From a virus (Duplodnaviria > Heunggongvirae > Uroviricota > Caudoviricetes): a stretch of DNA of 21,039 nucleotides. Below are positions 2,370-21,039 of this stretch, piece after piece. Below the pieces are notes generated by a model. It saw only the letters and a list, made by a program, of their open reading frames with translations, had not been told where the DNA came from and did not search any database. How positions within the stretch are numbered: position 1 is the stretch's first letter; the number at the start of each line of letters is the position of its first letter. The DNA lies in the IMG/VR virus record IMGVR_UViG_2718218398_000002. One strand, 5' to 3'. The translations under genes were made by a program, and so were the position numbers.

Positions 2370-2399
2370 AAATCATGCCATGCAGGCCAGAAACCGCCA

Positions 2400-2425: not shown

Positions 2426-2470
2426 ACGGTAAACAAGGCTGGTAACGCCGTTCAGCGTTCCGGCGATAAA

Positions 2471-3439
2471 ATGACCGGAGAACTGAAAATTGGCACGGTG
2501 AATGCGCTGCGAATTTTCAATGATGCCTTCGGTCTTATTTTCCGTCGTTCAGAAGATTTTCTTCATTTCATTCCGACGGCTGAAGGACAAGGCGAAAACG
2601 GTGATATCGGCCCATTAAGGCCATTCGCTATAAATCTGAGAACAGGTGCTATATCTGTCAGCCACGGGGCCAAAATTGATGGTGGGCTGGCGCTTGGTAC
2701 AGATAACGCACTGGGCGGTAATTCCATTACTCTCGGAGATAACGACACTGGTATTAAACAGGGCGGCGACGGTGTCCTTTTATTCTATTCAAATGGACAA
2801 CTGGCATTTGGGCTTCAACCCGCATCTGCTGATTTTTATAAGCGGGTTGCATATATTCATCAGGGAATAATTCCTGATGGAAGTGGCGCATTTGCAGACC
2901 AGTTGAATAATGCCACCGCGCCTTTTGTTCAGACGCAGTTTGCCTGGAATCCCACTCCTGGTGGTCTTTACGTGCCGATAGTTAAGGGCTTGTCCATTCG
3001 CAATGGACAGGGCTATCCCGGCGCGGTCAGCTTTGGGTATTTACTGACAGAACAGTATGGATTTCCGGTTCCATGTATTCATATGCGTGGCGATGGCGGT
3101 AATGATGCTTTATGGCAGTTTAACCCGAACGATAAATCCTTTATTTCACCGGGTGCTCTTATTGCGGGTGGCGTCCGTTATAACACCGATGGAAATATAT
3201 TTGGTGGGTGCTGGGGGTCAAACTTAAATGATTACCTGAATAGTTCTTTTATCAGAAATGTGCGTCTGGGAGGCAGACGTTCTGACACATTATATCGCGG
3301 AGGACTTTGCGAACCAGGTAATGGTCATGTGACAACAGGATTGCAAATTATTGGTGAGGTTGATGGAGATGACTGGATGGTGTCACGACCACTACAAAAA
3401 TACATTTCTGGTAACTGGTATAACGTTGAACAGGCATAG
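2471..3439 (+). CDS. alternative tail fiber C-terminal cassette (silent variable part, S'v-like)
   Basis: 322-aa ORF; the frame is open from 2408, directly after the gix-like site. Shares GGNSI(T/V)LGDNDTG and the C-terminal PxQKYIxGxWYNV motif with the C-terminus of the expressed fiber at 4549..7374 but differs elsewhere. No promoter or RBS of its own. Confidence 0.75.
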   Translation: MTGELKIGTVNALRIFNDAFGLIFRRSEDFLHFIPTAEGQGENGDIGPLRPFAINLRTGAISVSHGAKIDGGLALGTDNALGGNSITLGDNDTGIKQGGDGVLLFYSNGQLAFGLQPASADFYKRVAYIHQGIIPDGSGAFADQLNNATAPFVQTQFAWNPTPGGLYVPIVKGLSIRNGQGYPGAVSFGYLLTEQYGFPVPCIHMRGDGGNDALWQFNPNDKSFISPGALIAGGVRYNTDGNIFGGCWGSNLNDYLNSSFIRNVRLGGRRSDTLYRGGLCEPGNGHVTTGLQIIGEVDGDDWMVSRPLQKYISGNWYNVEQA

Positions 3440-3455
3440 CCATCAGGAGAATATA

Positions 3456-3982
3456 TGCAACATCTGAAAAATATTACCGCCGGAAACCCCAAAACCATTG
3501 AGCAGTATCAGCTTACGAAAAAAGCTGGCGTTATCTGGCTATATACAGAAGACGGTAAAAACTGGTATGACGAATTAAAAAAACTTTCAGGATGATACTT
3601 TAAAAATAGCTTATGACCAGAAGGGGATTATTCGTTGTATTGAGAAAGACGTATCAACACTTAACCCTGACGGGTTAAGTGTTGTTGAGTTACCGAATAT
3701 AACAGCCAACCGTCGCGCCGATATCTCGGGAAACTGGAAGTTTCTGGATGGTAAAGTAGTAAAGCGGGAATATACAAAACAGGAACTGCAACAGCAGGCA
3801 GAGTTACAAAAAGCCGCTTTGCTTTCCGAAGCGGAGTCTGTGATTCAACCGCTGGAACGTGCTGTCAGACTGAATATGGCAACTGATGAGGAACGCACAC
3901 GACTGGAATCATGGGAACGCTACAGCGTTATGGTCAGCCGTGTGGATACTGCAAAGCCTGAATGGCCACAGAAACCAGAATA
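3456..3982 (+). pseudogene. tail fiber assembly protein (alternative cassette tfa'), frameshifted
   Basis: SD AGGAG 6 nt before ATG 3456. N-terminus [41 protein letters not shown] parallels Tfa at 4014..4547. The frame breaks in an A7 run at 3577..3583 (one extra A relative to the in-frame reading) and homology continues in another frame to ...[13 protein letters not shown]. Confidence 0.75.
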
Positions 3983-3992
3983 ACAACAAATT

Positions 3993-4017
3993 AAGGCCCG
4001 TACGGGCCTTTTCTTAT
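3993..4017. terminator. hairpin between the convergent tfa' and tfa genes
   Basis: aaggcccg ta cgggcctt followed by TTTTCTT on the plus strand; it sits between the two convergent stop codons. Confidence 0.5.
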
Positions 4018-4547
4018 TCTGGTGGTTCCGGGAATGTTACAGGAAGAACCGAGGTATCAGTTGTCTCAACCTGTTGCACGTATCGCATCCAGTTCATCAG
4101 TTGCTGTCTGTCTGAATCAGTGATAATCCCCAAAGTAAGCTGTGTTTGCCAGAACTGCGTTTTTTCTCTGGCCTGCTGTAATAATATTTTTTTCTGGTTT
4201 TCCGTCTGTAGGCGCAACTCTTCTTCGGTATATACACGTTTAATGACTGCGCCATCTTTAAACATCCATTTACCTGAGTCGTCAGCACGCCGGTTGGCGG
4301 TAATATCAGGAATCTCAACGACGCTATAACCTTCAGGGTTAAGTGTGGAGGCATCTTTGGTTATGGCAACAATAATATTATTTTCATCGTAAACAATCTT
4401 TATGGTGTCTGGCTGAAAGTTTTTCACTTCCTCATACCAGTTTTTTCCGTCCTCAGAGTAAAGCCAGATAACTCCGTGTTTCTTTGTTAACTCATACTGT
4501 TCCAGTGTTTTAGCATTACCCGCTTTTATGTTCTTTAAGTGCATCAT
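4014..4547 (-). CDS. tfa: tail fiber assembly protein
   Basis: 177-aa intact ORF immediately downstream of the fiber gene, ending in the Tfa-type ...FPEPPE C-terminus and paralogous to the frameshifted tfa'. Confidence 0.85.
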
Positions 4548-4548
4548 A

Positions 4549-7374
4549 TTAAACGCTCGCTACATTATACCAGGTGCCATTTATATACTTTTGAACGGGT
4601 CTGTAATAAACGCCCGCTATATTATCGGCAGAGTTAGACCCTGTATCCTGAACATTAATACCAGACAATACATGACCTGAAGGGCACTGGAAATTCCATG
4701 TTTGCCAGTTGTTCACTCCATAATATTGCTGTGAACCAAGTCGAACATCTTTCACATAACGGGAATCAAAGTTACCGTAATCCGAGGGGTTAACACGCCC
4801 TGTAATATTTATGGTTTTATTACTTTGAATGCTTCCGGAGACAAAGCGCATAACATGGACGTTATTAGCATAAACATCCAGATTACCATCGCCATTTTGT
4901 TTAAAGCCCGTGTCATTATCACCCAATACAATCGAATTACCGCCAAGAGCACTGGATGTTCCGATACCCAGTGCACCATTCAGTTGACCACCAGATAACG
5001 GCAGTGCACCAACATCTCCTGCTGAAGGCTTTCTGGTGGTGGTGTAAAATTCGGACCAGTCGGCTTCAAAACCATAACCATCACGGGCTGAACGATAAAA
5101 AATACCGCCATTTTTATAATTAATCCGAAACTGAGCTGCAGGACAACTTCCTTCTCCCATATAAAAATGAATAATTAACGTTGATGCACCACTAATAGTT
5201 GCGTTATAGGCTCCGCTACTCCAGTTCCATCCAACTGCTTTATCATTCGCAACGGTGCTTCCTGTTTTCCCTAAGGCAAACGCACCAACATGACTTGCTT
5301 TTAATGTGATATCGGAGGAACCATCAAAAGCCACATTGCTTATTTTCCTGGCAGTTTTTAATTTTGCAGCTGTAGAAGCATTGCCGGATAGTTCACCAGA
5401 AAGGCCACCGCTGAATGTTTGTCGATTAGTCCAGGTATTCGCTGTACTGAGTAACGGTATTTTCTCCCCGCTTGTGCCGAGTTCTCGTAAACCGAGGTAT
5501 TCGATAACGGCGGCAACGGTCGATTTCGCAAGAATATCCCGCCCAACTTTTGTCAGGGTTGCCAGACTGGCAACATCATTCCCCGTAAAATACGGAAACC
5601 TGTCTGCCGCAGTAGCAAGCCCGGCCAGCGCCGTCAGGGTGGCATCTTTCGGTTGCTTACCCGCAAGCGCGCTAGTCATGGTGGTCGCAAAATTCGGGTC
5701 GTTGCCCAACGCCGCAGCCAGCTCGTTCAGCGTATTCAGTGCGTCAGGCGACGAGTCCACGAGGGCAGCGATCGCAGCCATAACATAAGCCGTGCTTGCG
5801 ATTTGGGTATTATTCGTTCCCTGTCGCGCAGTTGGTGTTGTTGGCGTTCCGGTCAGTGCAGGACTATTTAAGGGCGCTTTCTTGTTCGTTTCACCCATTA
5901 CCGCCTTAACCGCTTTTGGCGTTGCCGCCAGTGACTCGGAAGTGCTGTTGGTCGCACTGCTGAGCTGTACTATCCCCTTTTTCGTCGTGCTCGCATCCTC
6001 AAGCGCCACGGCGGATGCAATATCCTCTGCCCGTTTTGCCGCTGTCTCGGCGCGCGTTGCCGCGGATTCCGCCGTACTTTTGCTCTGAGCTGCCGCCGTC
6101 GCACTGCCAGCTGCCTCTGTCGCCTTCGTGGATGCCGTCGTGGCGCTGCCCTTTGCTGCTGACGCCTGTCTGGTCGCCTCATCTTTTGAAGCAGACGCAG
6201 ATGATGCCGATGACGCCGCTGAACTGGCTGACGATGCGGCTGCCGCCTTAGAGGAAGCAGCATTGTCTGCTGAAGTCTTTGCATTTGTTTCAGAGGTTTT
6301 TGCTGCAGAAGCAGACCTCGCTGCTGCAGTGGCTTGCTCAGTGGCTTTGCCAGCCTTCGTTGTGGCTGTTGAAGCGGATGATGCGGCGCTTTCTGCCGAT
6401 TTTCCGGCGGCGGTGGCACTGGCTGAGGCCTGCCCGGCACTTGTTGACGCGGCACTGGCAGATAATGCAGCCGCTGTTTTTGAACCTGCCGCAGCTGAGG
6501 CGCTCTGTCCCGCTGCTGTTTCAGAAGACTTAGCGTTCGTCTCGGACGTTTTTGCCGCCTTCGCGGAATTTCCTGCCGCCGTTGCCGAGGAAGCTGCACT
6601 ACTGGCACTTGATGATGCATTCGTTTCTGAAGATTTCGCTGCCTCTTTTGAGGCCGCCGCACCCCGTGCCGAGGTGGCAGCTTCTGACGCCTTCGTGGTC
6701 GCTGTGGATGCAGAAGTGGCTGCCGATTTTTGTGATGCTGCGGCATTCGTTTCTGACGTTTTCGCGGCACTGGCGCTGGTAGCTGCCGCGCTTTTTGATG
6801 ACTCTGCAGCAGCAGCACTTTTTGCTGCTTCACGGGCCTTTGTCGATGCCGTTCCTGCGCTGGAAGACGCTGACTGAGCCGACGACGCGGCCTGTCCGGC
6901 TGACGTGCTGGCGGCACGTGATGAGGCTGCAGCATCGGTTGCATGAGTTGCCGCCTCGCTGGCTGATGCACTGGCATCGCTGGCTGATTTTTTCGCGGCT
7001 GCCGTATTCTGTGCAACCGCGGAGGCGTTACGTGACACCTCTTCTACCATCTGCTCAAAGCGGCGCAGTGCCTCCGGTCGTACATCATCCTCCGTCATGG
7101 CACCGAGAAAATCATTCAGCGTACCTGGTCTGGAACCTTCATAGACGGTAATGGTCCCGGCATGTGAAGGCGGAAAACCTTCAACCAGCAGGGTGACGCT
7201 GTACTGACCATGCTCAACATCCATGCTGTAACGTCCGGCTTCATCCGGATTTTCAGAGGCCACCGTGTTCACCACCACCGTGCTGCTGGTTCGTCTGGCC
7301 TTCAGCACAATGGTGCAGTTCTGTACTGGTTTTCCTGTGCCATCTTTAAGCACGCCAGAAATTTTTACTGTCAT
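4549..7374 (-). CDS. stf: side tail fiber protein, lambda Stf-like N-terminus with an invertible-cassette C-terminus
   Basis: 941-aa intact ORF with RBS GGTGGA. N-terminus [26 protein letters not shown]... and the long Ala/Ser/Thr-rich repeat region resemble lambda Stf as recalled. The C-terminal ~316 aa lie inside the invertible segment and end in [18 protein letters not shown]. Confidence 0.9.
5482..5507. repeat. gix/pix-like 26-bp recombination site inside stf (right boundary of the invertible segment)
   Basis: TTCTCGTAAACCGAGGTATTCGATAA matches the reverse complement of the 2400..2425 site at 22 of 26 positions with an identical central AAACCGAGGT core. It encodes ...[11 protein letters not shown]... 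at the constant/variable junction of the fiber. Confidence 0.65.
5990..7010 (-). repeat. imperfect tandem repeats encoding the Ala/Ser/Thr-rich low-complexity region of the fiber
   Basis: Repeated peptide units such as [10 protein letters not shown] and [21 protein letters not shown]-rich and repetitive DNA that also produces long spurious ORFs in other frames (5970..7016 minus, 6128..6877 plus). Confidence 0.7.
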
Positions 7375-7388
7375 ACTTTTCCACCAAT

Positions 7389-7420
7389 AAAAAAAGCCCG
7401 CAGCAGTGACGCCACGGGCT
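7389..7420 (-). terminator. intrinsic terminator downstream of lom
   Basis: Stem agcccg...cgggct followed on the minus strand by a U7 tract; located between the lom stop and the stf RBS. Confidence 0.5.
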
Positions 7421-7520
7421 TCAGGACAGTGTAACTTTACGTTTCCTCAAACGCAGTTCACCCCATAAGGTGGATGAACCTGCGTATCATAACAATATTT
7501 ACAGAAGATAAATCGGCGTC

Positions 7521-7750
7521 TGTTGTCAGAAACGGTATCCGATACCAACAATAAATGCATCCGTTCGCCAGTCGCCACTACCGGAACCTTCATAAGCAAG
7601 GTCAATGGTCACGGATTCGGTCGGGTTAAACTGCACGCCAGCCCCCCACGCCAGAGACGTGTTGCTGTGGCGACCGTCATCACTTCCGGTCAGCACATCG
7701 TGCGTTTTCCCCTTGTTGTCAGTTACGCGGAGATAATCCCCGGAGAAAGT
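7521..7750 (-). pseudogene. lom: lom (Ail/Lom-family outer membrane protein) 3' fragment, separated by the IS insertion
   Basis: Minus-strand translation ...SGDYLRVTDNKGKTHDVLTGSDDGRHSNTSLAWGAGVQFNPTESVTIDLAYEGSGSGDWRTDAFIVGIGYRF then stop, matching the lambda Lom C-terminus. Confidence 0.85.
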
Positions 7751-7836
7751 TGCGTATTACCGTGAAGGAGATCGGTGAGTAACATCGATGGAGATCGGTT
7801 CGTGTCACTTTCACAGAACCGTTTTTTAAATTACCT

Positions 7837-8586
7837 TCACTGATCTCCTTCGGTCAACGGAGATTGTATTTTCCGCATTGATTCTCCTTTAAGTTCGATC
7901 TTGATACTGCCATGAACCAGTCGATCTAGGATGGCATCCGCATGTGTGGAGTCTCCGATCATTTTGTACCAGTTTTCCACCGGCAACTGGCTCACTACGA
8001 TGATTGAGCCTCGTTGGTACATCAGATCCACTATTTCCAGCAGGTCGCTACGCTGTTCTGATGAGAGAGGTTCCAGCCCCCAGTCATCCAGAAGCAGCAG
8101 ATCGCTATTATTCAGCCTGGTCAAAAGTTTGCTGTATCTTCCATCAGCATGCCCCTGATAGCACTGTTCCATCAGCGCTTTAAGGCGATAATAGTAGACC
8201 TTGTATCCCTGTCGGCAGGCATTATGACCAAGTGCACATGCCAGGAACGTTTTACCGCTGCCGGTGGCCCCGGTCAGTAAAATATTTTGTTTCAGGGTTA
8301 ACCAGTTTCCCTGACTGAGTGAACGGATGAGGGCCCTGTCCAGCCCTCTATTGTTACGATAATCCAGCTTTGATAACTCAGCATTAAGTCTGAACCGTGC
8401 ATGTTTGATCAGACGCTCTGCCTTCCTGTTTTCACGGCAGGTTAGTTCTTCTGCTGTCAGTAATGACAGGCGTTCTTCGAAGCCCAGCTCCTGGTATGTG
8501 CCCGGTTGAGCAAGTTGCTTTTTAAGCGCATCACGGAAGCCGGTGAGTTTAAGTGCGGTCAGTTGTTCGTAAAGATGATTCATCAT
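7837..8586 (-). CDS. istB: IS21-family transposition helper ATPase IstB
   Basis: 249-aa ORF with a Walker A motif (LTGATGSGKTFLACALG) and Walker B (LLLLDDWG), typical of IstB. Confidence 0.85.
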   Translation of the reverse strand: MMNHLYEQLTALKLTGFRDALKKQLAQPGTYQELGFEERLSLLTAEELTCRENRKAERLIKHARFRLNAELSKLDYRNNRGLDRALIRSLSQGNWLTLKQNILLTGATGSGKTFLACALGHNACRQGYKVYYYRLKALMEQCYQGHADGRYSKLLTRLNNSDLLLLDDWGLEPLSSEQRSDLLEIVDLMYQRGSIIVVSQLPVENWYKMIGDSTHADAILDRLVHGSIKIELKGESMRKIQSPLTEGDQ

Positions 8587-8597
8587 TGGATCCCGTA

Positions 8598-10139
8598 TCA
8601 GTGGTAATACTCACTGCCGCGTACGTTTTCGTGTTCCATCGTGGATAACAGATCTGGTTTTGGATCCTGAACAGGTTGTTTATCCAGACCTTTTTCCAGG
8701 ATCGATTTAATACCTGACAGACGCCATACCTTTGTTTTCAGAGCTCTTGCACATGCTGCATTAAGTCTGGCTTTACTGTATTTTTTATGAAGGTTCAGGA
8801 GTCCAAGGCAGAAGCGATAGCTTTGTTCCGGATGTGGACGAGAGTTCAGTATATGAAGCACATAACTATGAGTTTCACTGCCTATGTGCCCCGCCCATTC
8901 CAGAAGACGCTCTGGCGTCCAGGTGGCATGCTGTCGATGAGCTTCAGGCATGTGCTCGTTGCGGGTACTGTAGCCATAAGTACGCTTGCGCGGGTGCACA
9001 GCAACCTCCTGCCCCTGATTGAAGAGTCTTACCAGTTCTCCGGAGATCCATGCTTCCAGTTGCTGGCCTAACAGCGAACATGGAACCGAGTAGTAATGTT
9101 TGTCGATTTCCACGTGGTAATCGGCATGAACTCTGACTTTCTTCACCAGGGTGTAACTGTAACTGGCTTCAGGAAGAGGCTTCAGTGCGGGTTTATCAAG
9201 CTGGATGAAGAGTTCTGCACGTGAATAACCCAACTTCTGCATTATTTTGTTATTCAGTCTTTCCAGCAACTCCCGAATGCGCTGATTAAGCGATGCAAGG
9301 CTGTAGAAGATCTCATGCCTGATTCGGGCCATGATCCAGCGTTCAACAACCTGAACGCCAACTTCAGCTTTGGCTTTATCTTTCGGTTTACGTGGCCGCG
9401 CAGGCAAAACTGCGACATTATAATGCTCAAGCATCTGCTGGTAGGTAGGGTTAACGTCAGGATCATACTTACATGCCCTGGATGTGGCGCTTTTCAGATT
9501 GTCCGGAACAACAAGTTCAGGAACGCCACCCAACCACTGGAAGCAGCGAACATGACTCATCACCCAGTCTTCAAGCTGCTGAGACCAGGTGGCCTCTGCC
9601 CATGTGTAACTTGATGCCCCGAGAACAGCTACGATGACCTGAGCAGTTCTTATTTCTCCGGTCTCAGGGTCGGTAACGCCAACGGTAGGTCCACAGTAAT
9701 CAACGAAAAGTTTTTCGCCAGCTTTATGTACCTGACGCATTGATGGTGAAGTGGTTTTGAGCTATTCACGGTACATCCGGCAGTAATGGTTATAGCTGTA
9801 AAAACCGCCTGGATTACGCTCACAGTATTCTTCCCAGAGTAGCTGCAGCGTCACGCATTTATTACGCAGTTCCCGGTGTACTGTAGCCCAGTCAGGCAGA
9901 GAGTGCTTCTTCATCTTAACCTGGGTCTGAAGGAACGCATGTTTTAGTTTTGTATCATCCCATCCTGTAGGTAAGGGCCACTGCTTTATGCCAAGTTGAG
10001 CCGCCCGATTAGCATATCTGGATACAACGGAAGGGGAGATTGCAAGACTACGACCAATTTGTCGATGGCTGAGTCCAACACCGTATTTAAGCCTAAGAAT
10101 TTCTTTAAGTTTTCTCATAGAAATTGGAACTGTTGGCAT
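8598..10139 (-). pseudogene. istA: IS21-family transposase IstA, interrupted by an in-frame TAG
   Basis: The N-terminal HTH ORF (9762..10139, 125 aa) and the DDE-domain ORF (8598..9740, 380 aa) are in the same frame, separated only by an amber codon at 9762..9764 (...[19 protein letters not shown]...). Confidence 0.65.
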
Positions 10140-10332
10140 AGGTATCCTTTACCGGAATGGCAAAAGATACAGATCAACACACCTGTGAAGTTCCAATAAC
10201 ATTGATGGAGATCACTGAATAACAAAATGAGTCAAAAGTGATCTCCATCGATGTTATTCAGCGATCTGTTCAAATGTTATTACCCGATCTCGATGGAAGT
10301 TATTGAGTGATCTCCTTTCATGAAAATACGCA

Positions 10333-10712
10333 AAAGTCGACACACGGCTGTAAGCCACACCCGCCATCGCATACGCGCTGAACCATTCATTCACGCGTAC
10401 AGACGGCCCCGCCATCACGCTGAACCAGCGGTTACGCACGGAATCTTCATGCCAGCGGGTATCGCTGTAGCGCGTTTTTTGCTCATCCTCAGCATTGGCA
10501 TAACTGAAGGACGTAATCAGCCCCAGCGCGTCCGTAAACTCATAACGGTATTTCACGTTAATCCCGTTCAGATCATCACTACCGGGAACGTTCGTCGAGG
10601 CATGGAGATACCCCGCGCTCAGCGTGGACTGATGTTCTGCTGCACTCGCTGGCGTAGCAGCGGCGACCTGCCAGACTACTGCGGACAAAATAACAGCACA
10701 TAATTTACGCAT
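10333..10712 (-). pseudogene. lom: lom 5' fragment (signal peptide and N-terminal beta-barrel portion)
   Basis: MRKLCAVILSAVVWQVAAATPASAAEHQSTLSAGYLHASTN...AYSRVSTF matches the lambda Lom N-terminus up to the IS junction. SD GAGAGG precedes the ATG. Confidence 0.85.
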
Positions 10713-10737
10713 AATTACCTCTCGCTTTTCTGCAATA

Positions 10738-10761
10738 AAAAAGGCGCCATTTCTGGCGCCC
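10738..10761 (-). terminator. intrinsic terminator between J and lom
   Basis: Perfect stem ggcgcc / ggcgcc around a 6-nt loop, followed on the minus strand by UUUUUUAUU. Confidence 0.6.
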
Positions 10762-10779
10762 GTATCTGGGTTATAAAAT

Positions 10780-13700
10780 TCAGCTAATCGTGATGCCTGC
10801 AGTGGCTTTCTTCATCACCACAACCAGCAAATCGCTGATACTTGCTGTGGGATACCAGTTATTTACCAGCCATGCTGACACCGAAAACTCCAGTGTCATG
10901 TGACCGTGACCGGCAGGCATATCAATAACACCACTGTAAATCAGCGTATTATCCAGCGCGGTACGGTTATAAATTTCAGCACCGTTTTTCCGCACTATCA
11001 GACGGCATGAGGAGTAAATATCAGTATGCTCTTTCTCATGTTTAGCGCCGCTGAATGCCACCGCCGGAATAACAATCTGCCGGTCAAACGGCTGATCGTC
11101 ATAAACCCTGACGGTAATGGTTCCTGATGGCCACCGCTCCGGTGCACGGGAGTCCCGGGGGAAAGCTTTGCCCACTGTTTTAACGAGATCGCCTTCAATC
11201 TGGTTCGCGGACAATTTTCCCAGAACCCGACAGTTCTCGTTAATCGTGACGTTGTTGAGCGTCCCGGAGTTCGCATTCACGTTACCGCTGATATCGGCAT
11301 TTTTCGCCGTCAGCCGCCCGTCCGGTGTCAGGGAAAATGCCGGAGGATTACCGCCGCTGGTAATGGTGGGAGCCGTCAGATATTTCAGGAACACTTCATT
11401 CATAAATATCTGATCGCCCTGACCAACAAACATCGGCTTTGTGTTGCCATTCGCAGGATTAATCATCGCAATCCTGTCTGCCGCCAGCAGCACCTGACTC
11501 TGCATTCCTGCTGGCGTATTCTCAATACCGGCACCGATACCCGCAATATAAAGGCGTCCGTCCTGCATCTGCTGCAGTTTCACGGCCCACATGCTGTTCA
11601 GGTTATTATTTGTATCAACCTGAACTTTCTGTATCTGCTGGATTGCCGCACTCTGATTTTCCAGTTTTTTATTGACGGTCTGCGTGATTTCATTGCTGAC
11701 ATTCGTAATGGACGTCCTGATTTCAGCCAGGTCCGGCGCAAGCTGACCGTTATCAATCTGCGTCCACAGCTCCTGGGCCAGATGTGTTTTCCCGATTTCT
11801 CCTTTGAAAAAATCCAGGTAACCTTCCGCATCATCGCTCGCCCGACCGACAGCCTCCACGAATGCCGATTTGCCAACAGTATTCACACTGCGGATATAAA
11901 AATAATAATCATGGCCCGGTTTGATATTGATACTGGCAGCTATCCAGTACAGCGCCGAGCCAAGATAGCGGGCTGCGGTTTCAACCTGCCTGATATCCGC
12001 AATCCGCTTTTCCGAGAACCAGAACTCAAACTGTACCGTCGGGTCATAAACGGCAAGATGTGGCGTTGCGGTTATCTGAAAATAGCCCGGCGTCAGCTCA
12101 ATCCGCGACGGTGCTGCCGGTGCGGCAATCCGGAAGGTGGTGGTGGCAGGTTCACCCTGCTGGCCATAGCTGTTTATCGCCCGCACCGTCAGGGTGTATT
12201 CCCCGAGCGGCAGGCCGCTGAAACGGTGCTCCGTGTCTGCGGTGATGGCGGTGGTCACCAGTCTGGCATCCGTTCCCTTACCACTGGTCAGGCGCAGACT
12301 GAAGCGCACACCCTTCACCACCCGCGGCGTGTCCATTTCGCCTGCGCCAGATACTGGCCGTCAGCTGCGCTCACCTCCACCGTCAGGTGCTGCACTGCCG
12401 GTGGGATGACGCTGTTCAGGGAACCTGACTGCGGCTCAAAGCGGGCACCGTTATCCACGATGGCTTCTTTTTCCGGTACGTGCTGCACCGCCGTGATGGC
12501 AAAGGTGCCGTCCGTGTTTTCCCGGATGGAGACACAGCGGAACAGGCGACGGCGCAGTGACGGCAGGGAGAGTCCCCCACACCCCGTATGTCTCCACACC
12601 ATCAGGCAGGGTACTGACCTGTATCCGGTCCGGCGCGGGGTGTGCGGTGATGTCCACACTCACCGGCTTACCGCTGCCGTTAATCAGGTTCACCGCCGAT
12701 GTACCTGTCTCCGGCAGGGTAACCTCACGGTCCAGCGTCAGGGTGCGGGTGGCAGCATCAATGGACAGGACACGTCCGCCGGTCAGGGTCCCGGCATAGT
12801 CATTATCACAGATTTCAATAATGTCACCGGGTGTGTGCCGCAGCCCCTGAGACCCGAGCGTGAAATCCACCGTCTGCGTTTCCAGCAGTTCGGTCTTTAT
12901 CACCCACAGTCCGGCACGGTGGGCCTGACCGCGGCTGGTACAGCCGAACGCGTCCATCTTCAGCAGGTTGCGTCCGTAGCGCAGTATGGCTTCCGGGTCT
13001 TCCACCAGTTCCGTGGAGGTCTGCCAGCCGTTCTGCGGGTCGGTGTAATTCACCTCCACCGCCGTGTGCCGGTCCTTCAGGGCACTGAAGCTGTAGCGGA
13101 ATCCCACGCCGTTATCATCCACCACCACATCGCTGTTGGTGTACGGCCACACCACATCCGACGGGCGGTCCTGAACGAACGTCAGCGTCTGACCGTTCCA
13201 TACCGGGCATACAGCGCATCGCAGAGCAGAAATCACTGAGAACGTCCCACGCCTTACGCTGTTGTGCCAGGTACGCATTAAAGGTCATCCGCGGCTCGGT
13301 CCCCCCGAAACCATCCGGGACCGTCTGGTCGCAGTACTGCCCGATGGCATACAGCGCCCACTTGTCCACATCCGCCGCCCCCAGACGTTTTTCCCATGCC
13401 GTAGCGCGGGTGAGTCAGCATGTCCCACAGACACCAGGCCGGGTTGTTGCTGTATGCCGGTTTCAGACTGCCGTCCCAGATACCACTATACGTGCGTTTT
13501 TCCGGGTCATAGTTTGACGGCACCTGGATGATGCGACCGCGGATATGGTAGTTCACCGTCATCTGCTGGCCGCCGAACTGCTCCGCATCCACCTGCAGCC
13601 CCACAATGGCCGTGTTCGGGTAGCACTGTTTCACATCGATGATTTCGGTGTATGACGACCACAGCGTCTTATTCTGCAGCTGGTCCGTGGTGCTGTCCGC

Positions 13701-14255
13701 CGTCTCCCTGACCATCCGGATGTTAAAGGGCCGGGGAGGCAGATTATCCAGAATCACCGAGGCCAGGAACTGTGAGGTGGTCTTGCCGTTAATGGTGACG
13801 TCCTTTTCTGTCACCCAGTTACCGTTACGCTGTAACTGAATCAGCAGGCGGACGGATGCCGGGTTACGGTCACCCTTTGAGGTGGTCTCCACCAGTGACT
13901 GCACCCCGAAGGTAACCCGCAGGCGGTCAATGTTCGCGGACGTAATGGTGCGCGTCACCGGTTTTGCCTTCGTCACTTCCACGCCCAGTCCGGTTTCAGC
14001 TCCGGAGGACTCAAAGCCTTCCGGTGGTGTCTGCTCCTGCTCCCCGGCGCGCCAGACCGCCGTCACACCGTGTATCACGGGATTGCCGTCCGTGTCCGTC
14101 AGTGGGGTTTTGTTCACCAGAATACTCTGCAGTCCCTTCACCGGACCTTCTATCGGTCCCTCACCAATCGCATCAATCACGCTCATCATCTGCGTGGATT
14201 TGAGATTATCCTTCGCCTCACGAGGCGTGTGTGCCTTACCGCCACCTTTTCCCAT
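10780..14255 (-). pseudogene. J: tail tip / host specificity protein J, broken by four single-base frameshifts
   Basis: Five consecutive minus-strand ORFs (13278..14255, 13115..13369, 12451..13278, 12315..12659, 10780..12336) are collinear with lambda J from its MGKG... N-terminus onward. Each junction is a 1-bp indel in a homopolymer (near 13387..13391, 13205..13207, 12573..12577 and 12337..12338). Confidence 0.85.
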
Positions 14256-14359
14256 ACAGCCTTCCCCTGAATAAATTAACCGCCACTTGCCATTCCGTAC
14301 AGAAGTCGGATATCCTTCGCCCGAAAAGCATGAAACACATTTCTGCCATGCTAAAGAGA

Positions 14360-14393
14360 AACCCCGGTATCAGCAGATACCGGGGTTTTCTTT
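14360..14393. terminator. strong hairpin inside the I-J intergenic insert
   Basis: Perfect 11-12-bp stem accccggtatc / gataccggggt with loop agca, followed by TTTTCTTTC on the plus strand and UUUCUCUUU on the minus strand. Confidence 0.45.
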
Positions 14394-14462
14394 CATGCCC
14401 ACCGATAATCCTGTTGGTTAAAACCGGGTAATGGCATAAAAATTTCTGAATATCTTCACATT

Positions 14463-14490
14463 TTCACACACTGACTGTGGCGCTTATAAT
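14463..14490 (+). promoter_or_regulatory. near-consensus sigma70 promoter, plus strand, antisense to the tail operon
   Basis: TTCACA (14463..14468), 16-bp spacer, TATAAT (14485..14490), with an AT-rich UP-like tract just upstream (14433..14460). Confidence 0.4.
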
Positions 14491-14496
14491 TTCGCT

Positions 14497-14594
14497 GCGT
14501 TAGTGTTTTTTTGCCCGAGTAACAAAAACAACTCCTTAACATTGATCTTCATTTGTCTGTCCCCGCAGCTCCGCGATCACTGCGGGATTTTTTT
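14497..14594 (+). ncRNA. candidate ~100-nt small RNA (promoter to terminator, no ORF)
   Basis: Lies between the predicted transcription start after the TATAAT box and the intrinsic terminator at 14562..14594. Contains no ATG with an SD. Confidence 0.25.
14562..14594 (+). terminator. intrinsic terminator, plus-strand orientation, abutting the I stop codon
   Basis: Stem cccgcag...ctgcggg followed by T7 (14588..14594). On the minus strand an A-run precedes the stem, so it is not a canonical terminator for gene I. Confidence 0.5.
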
Positions 14595-14599
14595 ATGTT

Positions 14600-15282
14600 T
14601 TATCCCTGTCGCCCGATAACCACGACCGTTCCGCCCCCGCCTTCATCACGGGTGCTGATGTCCTGGGATATACGGCGGGAGCCAACCAGCATTTCCCCGT
14701 AAGGCACCGGCATCGGGTTCCCCTGGGCAATCATGTTATCCAGCGAGGAAAAGTACGTGTTCTGTCTGCCGTTATCCGTTGCGCGGTAATCCGGTGTTTT
14801 TGCCTTCGGGGCCAGCATCTGGGCCACACCGCCCAGAATCATGCTGGCTCCAAGTGAAAACAGCATCGTGGTGGCAGAAAAACCACCGGGCTGCCAGGGC
14901 TGAACCCCATAACGCCATTGATGCCCCGGCAGTGAAGAAAGAGCCCACGATGGCTGCCGCCCCCAGGCACAATCTGCAGTCCACCCTTTCCGGCCCCGGC
15001 CAGTCGCGGCACAATATGGATGACCGTTCCCTCACCCAGCTGTTCGTGAAGACGGGCGTACACCGCCTCCGGTGCCGTGTCATAACCGGCAATACGTATC
15101 TGGTACCAGCCTTCGTTCATCTGACGGCGAAAGCCCGGCACCTGTAACGACAGCGCCCGGATGGCTTCCGCTGCCGTGTTCACATACAGGCTGAGGCGGC
15201 GGCCAAATCGTTGTAAATCCCCGTGAAGGCAGATGCGTGCCAGTGGCGGTGACGCCAGACAGAATGCGTTCGTCGTTGCCAT
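14600..15282 (-). pseudogene. I: tail assembly protein I, two frameshifts
   Basis: Three overlapping minus-strand ORFs (14839..15282, 14772..15092, 14600..14866) are collinear with lambda I (ARICLxGDLQRFGRR ... AAAIxGSFFTAGA ... LFSLGASMxLGGVAQMLAPKA ... NTYFSSLDNM). Confidence 0.8.
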
Positions 15283-15922
15283 TTTTCGGAATACCTCTCC
15301 CGTTTACTCAGTTGTTCAGGCAGATGGTGAAGCAGCTCACCGTTGCCGCAGTAAATGGCGGCATGGTTCGGTACCGAAGCACCAAAGCAGCACAGCAGAA
15401 TATCGCCCGCCTGTGCAGAGGACAGGGGCACCCGGTAAAAGCCGGTGACCGCCATATTGTCCAGGTAAAGGTTCTGACCGTTGCGCCACCAGTCATCCTC
15501 GCGATGAAATCCGGCATTTCAGTCCCCGCCAGATGATAAGCATCCCGGAACAGCGTGTAACAGTCCGTCACCCCGTGCTCAAAGCGCCGTCCTGTCAGAT
15601 GTGGCACACAGCGGAATTTGTGAATGTCACCCCGGCAGACCAGCCACCAGGGCAGTGCGCTTTTTATCTGCAGCCGCCGGTCAGCCTCGCTCAGCCAGGG
15701 CAGCCCACCGGGATGACTGTGGACCAGTGCCACAATCTCCCCCTGCATCTCTGCCCGCAGCCAGTCTTCCGGTGCGATACGAAAATACGCCTCCGGCTCT
15801 GCAGAAATATTCACACAAGGGATATACCACTCCCCCTCCGACGTGCTTATCACGAAGCCGCACGACTCCGCAGGCGCACACCGCCGGGCATGCGCCAGAA
15901 TCGCTGATTCAGTCTGTGTCAT
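15180..15922 (-). pseudogene. K: tail assembly protein K (MPN/JAMM plus NlpC/P60-like), one frameshift
   Basis: MTQTESAILAHARRCAPAESCGFVIS...HSHPGG...DCYTLFRDAYHLAG then a frame break (a single-base deletion near 15505, changing TTCC to TTC in the coding sense), continuing as ...VTGFYRVPLSSAQAGD...PNHAAIYCG... in the ORF 15180..15455. Overlaps the start of I by about 100 nt. Confidence 0.8.
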
Positions 15923-15932
15923 AAACCGGGAT

Positions 15933-16631
15933 TTACTGCGAAAGTTTATTAATGGAAAGGAAACCGCCAAAATTGCCGACATTCCTGCGCAGTTCACACC
16001 CGCGCATGCACTTGCTGCATCTGTCCTTACGGATATCCGTGGTGGGGTTGTCGAACTCATCCGCCACCGCAGGACCGTTATACCCGCATTCATCTCCCCG
16101 GTAATCCCACATACAGGTGTTCGCCAGCATGATGCGACCGGGAAACAGCGCCCCATCCGTCTCGGTCGGTGTAGCCAGCACAAACGAGGCCGTCATGGCT
16201 GTCAGCTGCGACATCTGCTCCACCACCCAGCGGTCACTCAGCTCCTGCTCCGGGTCCGCCTCCGGATTGCCCGCAACGAAATTCACCGCATCCAGAAAAC
16301 GGGCATACACCCGGCGGCGGACCACCGTGGCCCCCACCAGACTCTGCAGGTCTTCCGCCATCCCGGTGACCAGACCGAACAGATTGGACACCGTCAGCGA
16401 CGGTCTGGCACTGCTGCCCTTCCCGCTCATCTCAAAACCGCTGCCGTCAATCGGGTATGCCTGATATTGCCGCCCCTGCCAGGTGACCGGCTCCCCTTTT
16501 TCATTCAGCTCATTACAGAAAAAATACCGCTCACCGCCCTGTACCGTCAGGTCGATTTCCCAGAGTACCACCCGCGGTGACTGCTCTGACTTAACCGACT
16601 CGTTCAGACTTTCTTCGCGAATATCCTGCAT
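15933..16631 (-). CDS. L: tail tip assembly protein L
   Basis: 232-aa intact ORF; MQDIREESLNE...GNFGGFLSINKLSQ is collinear with lambda L throughout. Confidence 0.9.
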   Translation of the reverse strand: MQDIREESLNESVKSEQSPRVVLWEIDLTVQGGERYFFCNELNEKGEPVTWQGRQYQAYPIDGSGFEMSGKGSSARPSLTVSNLFGLVTGMAEDLQSLVGATVVRRRVYARFLDAVNFVAGNPEADPEQELSDRWVVEQMSQLTAMTASFVLATPTETDGALFPGRIMLANTCMWDYRGDECGYNGPAVADEFDNPTTDIRKDRCSKCMRGCELRRNVGNFGGFLSINKLSQ

Positions 16632-16972
16632 CAGTTCACCACCTGCTCAATCGTACAACTGAAATCACTGTGCCTGGCGTTATCTGTGACGCTCCACTCC
16701 CGGCACACCACCCTCACCGTCAGGTTATGTTTCGGCGGTCGCCACAAAAAGGCACGGTAACCACCATGCCACGATAAAAATTCATCCAGCCAGCGCCGGG
16801 TTGGTTCATCCGTCACCCGGAACACCGCCTGAAACGTCTTCAGTCTGGCATTAAGTCCCGTCGGTCGGCGCTGTTCATAACCGTCACCAAACCGAACCCT
16901 CACCACCGACGGTTTCTCACTCACCTGCATCCCTTCACGCGGGACCAGATGCAGCGTTTTTATCTCAGCCAC
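16631..16972 (-). CDS. M: minor tail protein M
   Basis: 113-aa intact ORF with the lambda M-like core VRFGDGYEQR and C-terminus IEQVVN; its stop overlaps the L start. Confidence 0.85.
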   Translation of the reverse strand: MAEIKTLHLVPREGMQVSEKPSVVRVRFGDGYEQRRPTGLNARLKTFQAVFRVTDEPTRRWLDEFLSWHGGYRAFLWRPPKHNLTVRVVCREWSVTDNARHSDFSCTIEQVVN

Positions 16973-19900
16973 TCAGCATTCCTCCGTCACGTCGCATGGA
17001 CAGCATCACCGCCTGCACCCGCTGGTCAATCAGCTGCACAAGACTGCCTGCCGCCTCCGCCCCTATCTGTCCGTTAGCCCCGTCATTCTGAATGGCGATG
17101 TGGTAGACCGGGGAATACACCAGACCGGCACTGCCGTTCATACTGCCCACCGCGCGTACGCCCAGCGAGCCATCCGCCGCCCGGGTCAGGGGCATAATGG
17201 CTTCAGGTCCGGCTTCCCCCATCAGCCCGGCCCCTTTTGCAAACGCAAAGTACGTGGGCGTGTCCACAATGCTGTTGCTGTACGCACTCAGGTTTGCCGA
17301 GGTATACACGCCGCCTTTTGCATTGGCCACCGCACCGCCCAGCCAGTCACCAATGCTGCCAATAAATCCTCCCGCACCGGACATACCGTTTGCCGCCGTC
17401 TTAATTCCGTTGACAATCGCAGCATTCATAAGAAACTTTTGAGATTTCCTGCAGTACGGATGAGGCCCAGTTGCGCCATTCCACTTTGTTTCCGTTCAGC
17501 ATCTCCGTGATGTTATTCACCATCCCTGAGATACCCTCCGTCGCAAGCTGTGCTGCCTGTGAGGCGTAATCGGATGCATTGTCCACCCAGTTACTGAGCC
17601 CCTCCTGCAAGCCTTTCTGCCAGTCCGCACGCTGCGCATCCGATTCGGCATAAAAGGCTGCCTGGTCCTTAAGGCGTTCGCTCAGATACTGCGCGTTCTG
17701 TGCCCGTGCCTGTCTGTAAAAATCCTCACTGATATCCCCGGTCTGATACTGAGACTGAAGGTCCGCATCCTTCTGGCGGAAGCTGTCACGGATCTGCTGC
17801 AACTCCCGCATGCGTTCCCTGGCTCGTTCTCCCTGCCCGTATCCCAGCAGTTCGGCTTCATTTGATGCACGCGCAGCCACATTATCATTCTTCAGGGTCT
17901 CTTCCCGGGATCGCAACTGTTCCCGGATTTTTTGCTGGTCAATCAGGGCCGCGTTACGCAGCAGTTCCTGCTTCTGCATCTCCGTCAGGGTTTTCAGTTC
18001 GCCCTGCGCAGTCTGGTACTTCAGCTTCGCCAGCTCTGTATTCTGACCCGCCAGTGCCAGTTGCTCTTTCTGCTGCTTCAGTAGCCGGGAAAAACTGTCT
18101 TCCGCTTTTTCCGTCTCTGATTTTCCACCCCGGGATTTAGGTTTGTTCGCCTCGTTATTACGCCAGGCTTCCAGAGCATTACTGATATAACGCTGTCTCG
18201 CCTCCTGATACGAATCCCCCACAAAACCAAGGTCATCCGCCGCATACCCCAGCCGGGCACGCTCTTTTTCCTCCCCTTCAGTCGGGACAGGGCCAGCTCA
18301 CGTTCTGTTTTTGTCAGGGCGCTCTGCTGTTTATCATCCAGGGTGGCCTGCGGCAGCCGTAACGGTACATTCACCAGTCCCTGACGCTGCTGAAGCAGTT
18401 CATTCCCCAGCCCCAGCAGACGGTTGAATTCCGTATGCTGACCGTTCATAACCAGCATGGACTGGTACACCTATTCTGCTCTGCCGCCTGCTGACGAATT
18501 AACGCCACACGACGGTCTTCCAGCCCGGCAAGCACATCCTGAATGGACTGCGCTTTTTCCTGCATCTGTGCCAGACGGGACTGCTCAACGGCAAGCTGCT
18601 CTGTTGCCTGAGAAAGCCCTTCCGTCACGGTCTTCACCGATGTCAGATGGTTTATCATGAATCCGTCACCGGTTGTCCAGCCAGGGTTAGCCAGAACATA
18701 CTGATATCCAGCGATTTTTTCCTGCAGGGATTTCACCCGGCTGGCCTGTTCATCAATCAGCCGGTTCTGCTCTGCCAGCGCCGCCCGTGTTCGTCCTTCA
18801 TTATCTGAGGCTTCAGGCAAAGACATTGACGGCGTTTTATGCGCGATTTCATCTATCGTCAGCATAAGTGCATACTGGCGCGCTGACTCCCTGGCCTGCT
18901 CCTGATTCTGGTACAGCGTATACCATGCTGCTGCCCCAGCATCACCAGTCCGGGTACGCCACCAACCAGTCCCAACGCACCAGTCATCAGACGTGAGCCC
19001 ACCGCCGTTGTACTGTTCAGCTCATTCTGGGCTGCGGTTCTGGCAGCAATATTTCTGTTCAGGCGTTCCTGTGTGGCCGCCAGACGGGCTTCTGCAGCAA
19101 TCTGCATCTCCGTCCCGCGGCTGCCGCCACAGCCTGCTGTGCACGGTACACGGCTGCCCTTGCCCGCGCCGTGGCAATCTGCGTCCCCCTGAGCTGTGCT
19201 TCCGCCAGTGCCACTTCATTACGTGCTGCCGTCACAAGTCCTGCCGTGGCAGCAGACACCCGCTCCGGAGGCCATATTGCCAAAGTACCGGGCAACCCCG
19301 ACGGCAACCAGCGCCCCCGCGGCTGTTGCCACATTATCAATATTACCGGCAACACCGTTCAGCACGCCGGAGAGCGTTTTCGTCGCTCCGCTGGCTTCAT
19401 TCGCGCCACCCACCCAGGCCATAAAGGCGTTTTCCACCTTTGTGATCCCGTCAGAGACCGTTTCCGGCATGGCGGCATATTCATCACGCAATACCCCCAG
19501 CTGGCTGATTAACGCAGGAACGACTTTATCCGCCGTCAGTTTGCCGTCGTCCGCCATCGCCTTAAGGTCTTTACGGGCCACGCCCATACCCGCAGCCAGT
19601 GCACGTACGATCCGGTCTCCGCTTTCATTGACCGAATTAAATTCCTCACCGCGTAACACACCCTGTGCCAGCGCCTGGCTGAACTGGGTGATCACCGAGC
19701 CCGCCTCTGCCGTACTGGCACCGGAGATTTTCAGCCCCGTGGAAATGGCCTCCGTCACCTTCAGCACATCATCAGCACTGTAACCATATTCACGCATTGA
19801 GGCTGCCGAGCGGGCAAACAGGGCCGCATTATCTGAAAATGCCGTGCCCGTCCGCTGGCTGATATCCATCAGCACTTTCTGTGATGACGAAAATTCATCG

Positions 19901-20216
19901 GATGACTGCGACGCGCCTGTTTCAGTCGGGCATTCACGGAACTCCATTCATCGGCCAGAGAAATCAGGTGTCCGGTGGCAAAGGCACCTGCAAATGCCCC
20001 CGCCGTTCCGGCAGCTGAAGCGCGGATTTCCGTCAACTGGCTGTTCAGCTCAGCCAGGGCGCGTCGCTGCACCCGGGCGACTGCGGCAGCCTGACGCCCG
20101 CCATTCTGCAGGGTCCGGTAATATTCACTGCCCATGCGGGAAGCCCGCTGGATCTCCGACTGGAATGACTGCGAATTTGCCGAAATTTTGATAATCAGTT
20201 CACGTAACGTCGCCAT
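16965..20216 (-). pseudogene. H: tail tape measure protein H, at least seven frameshifts
   Basis: Chain of eight overlapping minus-strand ORFs from 19869..20216 (N-terminus MATLRELIIKISANSQSFQSEIQRA) to 16965..17429 (C-terminal Gly-rich region resembling the lambda H C-terminus). Total span about 3.25 kb. Confidence 0.8.
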
Positions 20217-20263
20217 TCACCTTTCTCCGGGCGTAAAAAAACCGCCTCAGCGGTTCTCATCAT

Positions 20264-20766
20264 TCATGACTGTGCTGCGAAGCTCAGCGCGTCTTCCAGC
20301 GCCGCAAACGGATCCACCTCCGGCTTATCCTCATCCTCGCCCCAGCAGAGCATGGCGTCCTTCAGTGCAACATTCATCCCCTGTGCCCCAAAAACCGCTT
20401 TCACGATCTGTGCATTACGGATATCCCCGCGCTCATCACCCAGCGGGGATACCCTGTCGAACTCCATCCACATCATCGCCTCGCTCACACTCAGGCTGTG
20501 CCGCAGTTCGGATAAGGTGCGCCCCAGACGGAGCGCAAGTCGCATCAGAAAGCGAATTTCCGGGCGGGCTACTTTTTTCTGGCCGACTCTGCATCAGCGA
20601 TCAGTTCCAGTGCCTGACGCAGCAACCGGGCATGTACCGGACCATAGACGGCCAGCACCTGCTCACGGTCGTCCGGAGCGAACACCCGCTGCAGATCCGT
20701 ATCACACAGGACATCGCAGAACAGCGTCACATCCGCTTCTAGGTTACGGCGGGTTTTCGCCACCAC
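20264..20766 (-). CDS. tail assembly chaperone G with -1 frameshift extension (G/GT pair)
   Basis: The zero-frame ORF 20569..20766 ends ...ESARKK then TAG. The -1 frame continues as VARPEIRFLMRLALRLGRTLSELRHSL...AAQS to the stop at 20264, just upstream of the tape measure start. The junction is a canonical slippery heptamer. The zero-frame ORF may extend upstream through the TGA at 20794. Confidence 0.6.
20572..20578 (-). promoter_or_regulatory. programmed -1 ribosomal frameshift slippery heptamer A_AAA_AAG
   Basis: The mRNA reads aga AAA AAG TAG; the X_XXY_YYZ heptamer is in the correct phase and immediately precedes the zero-frame stop. Confidence 0.55.
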
Positions 20767-20793
20767 CGACAGGGTATCGTCATCCTCTCTCCA

Positions 20794-21039
20794 TCACCAT
20801 TGAGCACTTCCTGCCACAGATACCAGGCCTCTGCCGAAGGCTGATTCGCCTTCATACGACGACCGGTCTTTTTCTACAGCGACTTTAGAGCTGGTTTCTG
20901 GCGGTAGTTCCACCAGTTCGCGCAGATAGTTAGTCTGGGCGAGGTCCAGCTCCGTCCAGCCACCGCGTGGCAGACCTTTTGGCAGTGGGATATCACCGTA
21001 ACGAACGCGAATCAGGCGGCTCACCTGCACACCAACCGC
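20794..21039 (-). CDS. partial phage tail gene running off the window end (5' part of G interrupted by TGA, or 3' end of the preceding tail gene)
   Basis: The frame is open to the window edge (...[33 protein letters not shown]...GSAQW then stop). Its TGA stop is in the same frame as the G ORF start 9 codons downstream. Confidence 0.35.

Follow-up and report, generated by a model that had tools for sequence, protein, structure and literature searches.

Are the broken tail genes of the prophage in IMGVR_UViG_2718218398_000002 the marks of a decaying prophage, or are they errors in the sequence itself? In the window (the whole stretch of DNA analysed here, 21,039 nucleotides), small indels split the tail genes H, J, I and K and the tail fibre assembly gene tfa'. 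The broken tail genes are not a real biological feature. The frameshifts are almost certainly consensus errors in a poor-quality record, probably a contig that carries the alternative allele of an invertible segment, and not mutations.

The window corresponds to the right arm of the lambdoid prophage that is integrated in ompW in Escherichia coli ST131 (Phi4 in strain EC958, PPompW type), and its positions 1-2420 are 100% identical to the ST131 reference. Coordinates are collected in the table. According to the reference annotation and the intact homologues, the gene order is lambda-like (G-T-H-M-L-K-I-J) with matching Pfam domains, and in the ST131 lineage the tail genes H-M-L-K-I-J are intact. 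The same succession of genes is found in the tail module of phage lambda (G-T-H-M-L-K-I-J-lom-stf-tfa), whose K, L, J and I products share 67-87% identity with those of the prophage. The original prediction had claimed high identity to lambda for the protein fragments; this applies to K at 87%, L at 78%, J at 69% and I at 67%, but not to M (45%) or H (25%, over the C-terminal third only). Unlike in lambda, H is of HK97 type, the head genes are HK97-like, and stf has an invertible C-terminal cassette. The DNA is 96% identical to records of PPompW prophages of E. coli. As in the Gin/G switch of Mu, the Cin/C switch of P1 and the Pin/P switch of e14, inverted 26-bp crossover sites flank alternative cassettes of an stf C-terminus plus tfa; unlike in these Din-family switches, the local invertase is truncated. 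Neither an Rfam scan of the window nor a search for ORFs in the I-J spacer (343 nt) gave anything of note.

Table. Features of the window, with positions counted from its first letter.
Feature	Position	Strand	Remarks
Rha-family regulator gene	1-558	+	near right end of ompW-integrated prophage
pin-like serine invertase remnant, truncated	2163-2369	-	Resolvase profile positions 2-69 of 145
Invertible tail-fibre segment, 3.1 kb	2394-5513		EC958 prophage Phi4 type
tfa' A7 run	3577-3583	+	silent-orientation tfa', frameshifted
tfa, 177 aa	4014-4547	-	intact, expressed orientation
stf, 941 aa	4549-7374	-	intact, expressed orientation
T6 run, non-coding	7822-7827		3' of istB stop codon
ISEc12 (IS21 family) within lom	7837-10139	-	istB intact, istA split
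J, tail tip/host specificity	10780-14255	-	intact form 1157 aa; 4 single-base indels
I-J spacer, non-coding	14426-14445		two +1 insertions
I	14600-15183	-	intact form 193 aa; 2 indels
K	15180-15922	-	intact form 247 aa; 1 indel
L	15933-16631	-	intact
M	16631-16972	-	intact
H, tape measure protein, HK97-type	16965-20216	-	intact form 1080 aa; 7 frame breaks and in-frame insertion
T, tail assembly protein, 93 aa	20264-20545	-	intact
G, tail assembly chaperone	20569-20842	-	first ~33 codons missing; +CT at 20785
Join of phage gene G interior and rluB interior	20841-20844
rluB (core gene), internal fragment	20843-21039	-	frameshifted by private +C

Frame breaks were mapped base by base against the closest complete genome, NZ_CP023844.1, and by tracking of reading frames with tblastn. 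The events in J lie at 12333 (-C), 12574 (+C), 13205 (+G) and 13388 (+T), those in I at 14888 (+G) and 14966 (+G), and the one in K at 15507 (-A). In H, five of the frame-breaking events are of a single base, at 17433 (+A), 18273 (-C), 18472 (-T), 18934 (-C) and 19119 (-G), and the others are of several bases, at 19253-19259 (+CAG and +C) and 19912 (+CG); an extra 6-bp insertion at 18861 (AGCATA) leaves the frame as it is. In tfa', a run that is A6 in all relatives has become A7, an allele present in none of 370 genomes. These results reproduce the original counts of frame breaks (seven in H, four in J, two in I, one in K and one in tfa'), and the original coordinates were right within 1-5 nt. 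In addition to the listed breaks, all of which stand, six events had been missed. These are a +T at 7822 (T5 in relatives), 3' of the istB stop and within the IS or at its margin; two insertions in the I-J spacer (GG to GGG at 14426 and TT to TTT at 14443); a frameshifting +CT at 20785 in G; a private +C that frameshifts rluB (CC at 20863-20864); and the in-frame insertion in H. The neighbouring genes had been described as intact, and this holds for stf, tfa, L, M, istB and the methyltransferase gene, as well as for T, with L and M occupying an error-free stretch of 1.9 kb. It does not hold for G, which is frameshifted and lacks its first codons because its sequence ends at 20842, nor for istA with its TAG codon. 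Comparison with the reference confirms for H to J that there are no substitution-type stops; this region has no substitutions at all and no deletions longer than 1 bp.

The comparison with relatives shows that the indels are private to this record. Between 5487 and 20842 the window differs from strain 4/1-1 by 21 indel events and one substitution, and the reference CDSs there are all intact. The sole substitution is a real shared allele within the IS (istA TAG). The same allele is present in the genome L021 (GCA_001030365.1), which is identical to the window at 14,272 of 14,272 aligned positions and has none of the 19 window indel events in the aligned 14.3 kb. Mixing of paralogues in a collapsed repeat was also considered as a source of the indels, but this would bring substitutions with it, and it was rejected because these are absent in the comparison with L021. 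Among 5,426 complete E. coli genomes, 42-mers with the reference alleles match 4,602, whereas those with the window alleles match 11, at three sites only and with at most two per genome; these three window-type alleles are found singly in a few other genomes. At the rluB site, 5,422 genomes give a match, and none of them has the additional C. In the DNA of eleven relatives, the H-to-J and G sites show either the reference allele or a local variant that matches neither allele, and the window allele was read in none of the eleven.

The protein databases give the same picture. Ten ORF products were looked up (nine frameshift fragments and the truncated IstA), and all are on record. Eight of the nine fragments are confined to a single contig of 32,764 bp from E. 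coli O25b:H4, the GenBank record with proteins ANK07189-ANK07205 from which the window comes; the remaining one, the C-terminal ORF of H (154 aa), is found on four contigs. NA114, an ST131 genome with a documented misassembly, was considered as the source and rejected, since the fragments have ANK accessions of E. coli O25b:H4. A candidate for the matching assembly is CP015085 with CP015086, which papers describe as an ST131 'O25b:H4' strain from Saudi Arabia (2014). The products of J, H, K, I, G and tfa are found in intact form on 996 to at least 1,000 contigs each, and among the matches listed for the identical L protein, all ten places have intact genes beside it. The H region is recurrently miscalled: in MNCRE44, another ST131 long-read assembly, H has seven single-base deletions and no substitutions, and RefSeq flags it as 'frameshifted'.

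The only lesions that the window has in common with its relatives are the insertion of ISEc12 in lom, the truncation of pin and the TAG nonsense codon in istA (9762-9764), which is the one substitution relative to strain 4/1-1. The pin remnant holds just the N-terminal half of the Resolvase domain. It had been taken for a case of substitution-type decay; instead it is what a truncation has left, and since it is identical in the reference, this truncation is real and lineage-wide.

The distribution of the events is also informative. Twenty of the 22 lie to the right of 12333, i.e. in the last 8.7 kb (binomial p = 2e-6), leaving two outside this dense zone (3583 and 7822). Counted away from the inversion in five bins of 2.5 kb and a last one of 2.8 kb, there are 1, 0, 2, 7, 1 and 9 events, so that the rise in density with distance is not monotonic. 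The events ignore gene boundaries: they are found between I and J, at the margin of the IS, in G and also in rluB, a housekeeping gene. Most single-base events duplicate or remove a base that adjoins an identical base. It had been claimed that every junction is a change in a mononucleotide run, and in the dense zone 14 of the 15 single-base events do fall in runs of at least 2 nt (p = 1e-4); this is not so for the AGCATA and CT insertions or for the CAG and CG events, which are duplications. The per-base rate climbs from 0.0002 in singletons to ~0.003 in runs of 2-3 and ~0.01 in runs of 4-5.

In these respects (a gain or loss of one base at identical bases, an effect of run length, an absence of substitutions, and restriction to one assembly) the indels are like those in consensus sequences from 454, Ion Torrent, PacBio or nanopore reads, where homopolymer-associated errors give rise to false 'frameshifted' pseudogenes. 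Unlike typical homopolymer indels of these platforms, half of the single-base events are in runs of 1-2 nt (8 of 15 in the dense zone, by run length in the true sequence), the longest runs are untouched, and five events are multi-base (+6, +3, +2, +2 and the complex CAG+C event) and are not homopolymer changes. All eight runs of at least 6 nt in the dense zone are unaltered, where less than one altered run was expected; such untouched longest runs are atypical for an error that is driven by homopolymers alone. The pattern looks more like the noise of a low-depth consensus than like a pure miscall of homopolymer length. The change of ACCGG to ACCGGG occurs at three sites and might suggest a context-specific error, but only three of 23 ACCGG sites are altered, so this is suggestive only. 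No sequencing platform for the record was found in the literature, and the original attribution to a specific platform type (454, Ion Torrent or nanopore) is not supported.

What kind of record would have such errors? The invertible segment gives an indication. The crossover sites at 2394-2425 and 5482-5513 have the hybrid forms expected after inversion, and compared with EC958 and strain 4/1-1 the 3.1-kb segment is inverted; both orientations occur among near-identical isolates. With arm sizes derived indirectly, by combining reference coordinates with the 32,764 bp of the record, the record consists of a left arm of 14.3 kb, the segment of 3.1 kb and a right arm of 15.3 kb; the inversion is central because arms of these sizes flank it, and the segment lies within ~0.5 kb of the record centre. 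At 20842 the sequence jumps from G into the interior of rluB, with a microhomology of 2 nt (CT). In the reference, the two sides of this join are 32,709 bp apart, which agrees with the record length if net insertions are taken into account. By this arithmetic, the remaining ~11.9 kb of the record (trp operon, yciO, yciQ) would hold ~38 net inserted bases and thus frameshifts in housekeeping genes. In our interpretation, the two ends of the 32,764-bp record meet at this join. The junction was found in none of the 5,426 genomes, and none of the plasmid records searched spans it.

A very similar case has been described. Forde et al. (2014, PLoS One 9:e104400, PMC4134206) found that PacBio HGAP assembly gave separate spurious contigs for the Phi4 inversion; such contigs came from Phi1, Phi2 and Phi4 of EC958, and one of ~7.5 kb was obtained for K-12 MG1655. 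The Phi4 contig shares with the present one the prophage, which lies beside the trp operon, the 26-bp crossover sites, a flipped segment, a truncated local invertase, and the nature of a small extra contig that duplicates the chromosome around the inversion (for the present record, this redundancy is our inference). Unlike the contig of Forde et al., which has 12.7 kb, the present one has 32.8 kb, was submitted to the database with annotation as a genuine record, has ends that read as joined, and is dense with indels in its outer parts. From the truncation of the local invertase, the same authors inferred that the inversion is catalysed in trans, and by the same reasoning the inversion in the present prophage would have to be catalysed in trans as well.

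Taken together, this points to the following course of events. A long-read assembler would have built a redundant contig from reads with the 3.1-kb segment in flipped orientation. Reads would support such a contig well only near the inversion that sets it apart, and its consensus would keep errors of the raw-read type, such as single-base indels and small duplications, because few reads support the contig ends. The fusion of G and rluB would then be nothing but the two record ends joined. That the record is an alternative-allele contig, and that low read support caused the errors, are probable readings of its geometry and error pattern.

The indels could also be artefacts in a record that did not arise through the inversion. 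In this case the G|rluB join might stem from a chimeric read, or from a real tandem duplication or circle, 32.7 kb long, which the assembler turned into a separate circular contig of low coverage, or the whole assembly may simply be unpolished. Several observations fit: the join connects points on the same strand 32.7 kb apart, as a duplication junction would, and it has the CT microhomology; the events at 3583 and 7822 outside the dense zone suggest a raised baseline error of ~0.16 per kb; and the assembly is absent from the RefSeq complete-genome set. We nevertheless consider such an origin rather unlikely. No complete genome has the junction, the segment lies near the record centre and is flipped relative to EC958 just as in the documented artefact of the same prophage, and with a record length that equals the end-to-end distance, a plain linear contig suffices without any junction-forming event. 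The specific possibility that the join was real in the culture, as a tandem duplication or circular amplified unit of 32.7 kb, is very improbable, and the indels would still be errors. If it were true, the amplified unit would carry the trp operon, the tail fibre switch and the tail module, and the assembler would have split this unit off.

Biological explanations of the indels fare worse still. Broken tail genes are common among cryptic lambdoid prophages of E. coli, and the real, lineage-wide lesions nearby (lom::ISEc12, the pin truncation and the istA nonsense codon) could make natural decay, with frameshifts in a pseudogenised remnant under relaxed selection, look plausible. Like Rac, DLP12, Qin and e14, the cryptic prophages of K-12, the present one has a lambdoid tail and tail fibre region in the chromosome, with an IS in lom and a truncated invertase. 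Unlike the shared deletions, IS insertions and substitutions of cryptic prophages, the H-to-J frameshifts are private and come without substitutions; they are not common to clonal relatives, and H to J does not show a mixed mutation spectrum. Spontaneous indels in mutation-accumulation lines of E. coli are reportedly roughly ten-fold rarer than base substitutions, whereas here 19 indel events stand against no substitution in the comparison with the otherwise identical L021. The indels of one record also stand against ~1,000 or more intact copies, they are found outside coding sequence, in spacers, as well as in rluB, a conserved core gene, and they cluster towards the record end. Natural decay is therefore strongly disfavoured. 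The original prediction had offered a decaying prophage as one alternative and sequencing error as an equally good or better one; with H-to-J frameshifts that no relative shares, the former is not supported, and the latter is borne out by the private indels, the identity of L021 and the test on 5,426 genomes.

Slipped-strand mutation in a mutator strain deficient in mismatch repair, or tail genes with phase-variable contingency tracts, would account for single-base events that mostly copy or drop a base beside an identical one, at a rate that climbs with run length. Runs of 1-5 nt are, however, far too short for contingency loci. Transitions dominate mutator spectra, and H to J contains none. 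The events are confined to 8.7 kb and not spread over the window, and the non-repeat 6-bp insertion and the complex CAG+C event would be left unexplained. Either of these processes is extremely improbable here.

The finding is chiefly of use as a warning about data quality. Those frameshift fragments that were looked up (among ANK07189-ANK07205) are recorded as separate proteins, most of them also as UniProt entries; they are pieces of intact genes. Pseudogene counts, estimates of prophage completeness or calls of a 'decaying prophage' that draw on this record would be wrong. It would also be a further example of how invertible tail fibre segments can seed redundant, low-quality long-read contigs that reach public databases. 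As for the biology, the original prediction had reasoned that artefactual indels would leave a tail module that may be largely functional, and the intact proteins found on ~1,000 or more contigs each bear this out: the Phi4/PPompW prophage of ST131 retains a whole tail module and an active tail fibre switch.

The window carries a lambda-like tail module (G', T, H, M, L, K, I and J), then, after J, a lom gene interrupted by the IS21-family element ISEc12, followed by stf and tfa; all of these are on the minus strand. Beyond tfa lie an invertible tail-fibre cassette, a truncated invertase, a methyltransferase and Rha. The window is most similar to hundreds of E. coli ST131 chromosomes (99.7% identity) and to PPompW prophages (96%). 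In ST131 strain 4/1-1 (NZ_CP023844.1), used here as the reference, the prophage is integrated in ompW, beside the trp operon. The H gene encodes a tape measure protein of the HK97 type (1080 aa, Pfam Phage_HK97_TLTM) that shares 25% identity with lambda H, and this in the C-terminal third only. The head genes are HK97-like too (21165-30434 in L001, one of the compared sequences), while K, L, I and J resemble those of lambda, making the phage a mosaic. The spacer between J and I is 343 nt long, against about 60 nt in lambda, and holds no called gene, no Rfam match and no convincing ORF.

Positions in the window of the features and sequence events discussed in the text
Feature	Position	Event or content
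Truncated invertase (pin)	2163-2369	Resolvase profile positions 2-69 of 145
Invertible tail-fibre segment	2394-5513	inverted relative to strain 4/1-1
ORF of 322 aa	2471-3439	silent alternative stf C-terminal cassette
tfa'	3583	additional A
Single-base event	7822	+T
istA of ISEc12	9762-9764	TAG (reference TGG)
ACCGG sites	13205, 14426, 14888	+G
J-I spacer	14256-14599	insertions at 14426 and 14443
H	16965-20216	in-frame AGCATA insertion at 18861; GGG run at 19119
G	20785	+CT
G to rluB switch	20841-20844	mid-G to mid-rluB at 20842/20843
rluB	20863-20864	+C

The window was aligned base by base to strain 4/1-1. Positions 1-2420 are identical, the invertible segment differs by its orientation and one additional A, and positions 5487-20842 show 21 indel events and a single substitution. 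The original prediction, which had attributed the broken reading frames to single-base indels, is largely right: its tally of frame breaks (four in J, two in I, one in K, seven in H and one in tfa') was reproduced, and tblastn confirms the frame hops. It did, however, miss several events, namely the T at 7822, both insertions in the spacer, the in-frame insertion in H, and the CT in G. Its statement on homopolymers is only partly correct as applied to all events: five are multi-base, and eight are single-base events in runs of 1-2 nt. The per-base rate does increase with run length. The last 8.7 kb, from 12333 rightwards, holds 20 of the 22 events (p = 2e-6). Three insertions of G in this zone share the context ACCGG to ACCGGG, which may be a context-dependent miscall, affecting only 3 of the 23 ACCGG sites there. 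Another overlooked event is an extra, private C at a distance of 21 nt from the join with G. It breaks the frame of rluB, a conserved gene for an rRNA pseudouridine synthase, so the error-dense regime extends into core-genome sequence.

Four independent tests show that the indels are not real alleles. The assembly GCA_001030365.1 has no mismatch to the window in 14,272 aligned bases, which take in the istA TAG, and lacks every one of the 19 indel events of the aligned span. The population was screened with 42-mers, each with one event at its centre, joined into a chimeric query, where megablast is seeded only by carriers of a given allele: window alleles matched in 11 of 5,426 complete genomes, at three sites only and at most two per genome, whereas the matched control with reference alleles found 4,602 genomes. 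The A7 run of tfa' occurred in 0 of 370 genomes and the rluB insertion in 0 of 5,422. In the DNA of eleven relatives, none carried the window allele at the H-to-J and G sites; each site had either the reference allele or a local variant that differs from both. Likewise, at all ten places shown for the identical L protein, the neighbouring H, K, I and J have their full length. At the protein level, intact J, H, K, I, G and tfa are each found in about 1,000 or more contigs. All nine frameshift fragments looked up are present in the protein collection, eight of them in one record only, a 32,764-bp sequence named 'E. coli O25b:H4' (ANK07189-ANK07205); the ninth, a 154-aa C-terminal ORF of H, is on four contigs. 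Judging by the organism name, these accessions may belong to the CP015085 assembly.

The indels are thus very probably an artefact and not a biological feature, and the sequencing error favoured by the original prediction is supported. About 20 indels without any substitution are the wrong spectrum both for natural decay and for a mutator strain. Spacers and a housekeeping gene are affected alike, and the events are clustered in one stretch. A similar case is MNCRE44 (NZ_CP010876.1, 1468161-1473202), a 'complete' long-read ST131 chromosome whose same H gene has no substitutions and seven single-base deletions, all within C/G runs of 2-4 and one at the same GGG run as window position 19119; RefSeq labels its H and L 'frameshifted'. 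These deletions are probably errors too, and the GC-rich H gene is repeatedly miscalled. Other lesions nearby are real. The lom::ISEc12 insertion and the truncated pin are common to the lineage. The TAG codon splits istA into products of 125 and 380 aa, and the 380-aa one is annotated in other IS settings as well (35 contigs). Unlike the indels, this codon is a genuine allele, shared with GCA_001030365.1, where the element is inserted in lom at the identical position.

The original prediction described substitution-type decay in pin, but the gene is truncated instead, and the reference is identical. In the Phi4 prophage of EC958, a 3,106-bp invertible tail-fibre segment with a truncated invertase has been described (Forde et al. 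2014, PMC4134206). The 3.1-kb cassette of the window is the same segment in the opposite orientation, and its hybrid 26-bp crossover sites are exactly those expected for a flipped Phi4 segment. Both orientations occur among sister isolates (4/1-1 and 4/4 are opposite to 2/0 and 4/0) and other genomes, one of which (L019) has the orientation of the window; the switch is therefore active in spite of the truncated local invertase. The 322-aa ORF within the segment has no Pfam match; according to Forde et al. (2014, PMC4134206), annotations often wrongly present such cassette fragments as complete tail-fibre proteins.

At the join with rluB, G is left without its first ~33 codons, and this junction was found in 0 of 5,426 complete genomes. 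The reference has both join points on the same strand, separated by 32,709 bp that include the window, with rluB on the other side of it. This distance is the length of the 32,764-bp record after allowing for net insertions, so the simplest reading of the 'junction' is that the record's two ends have been set end to end. The invertible segment lies mid-record, flanked by arms 14.3 and 15.3 kb long, and Forde et al. (2014, PMC4134206) found that PacBio HGAP assembly gave separate spurious contigs for flipped alleles, including one of 12.7 kb for Phi4. Together with the hybrid crossover sites, this makes it fairly likely that the record is an alternative-allele contig, which would have been built around the flipped segment and whose consensus quality would fall with distance from the inversion. 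The length arithmetic predicts roughly 38 more net inserted bases in the other 11.9 kb of the record, from the trp operon to rluB.
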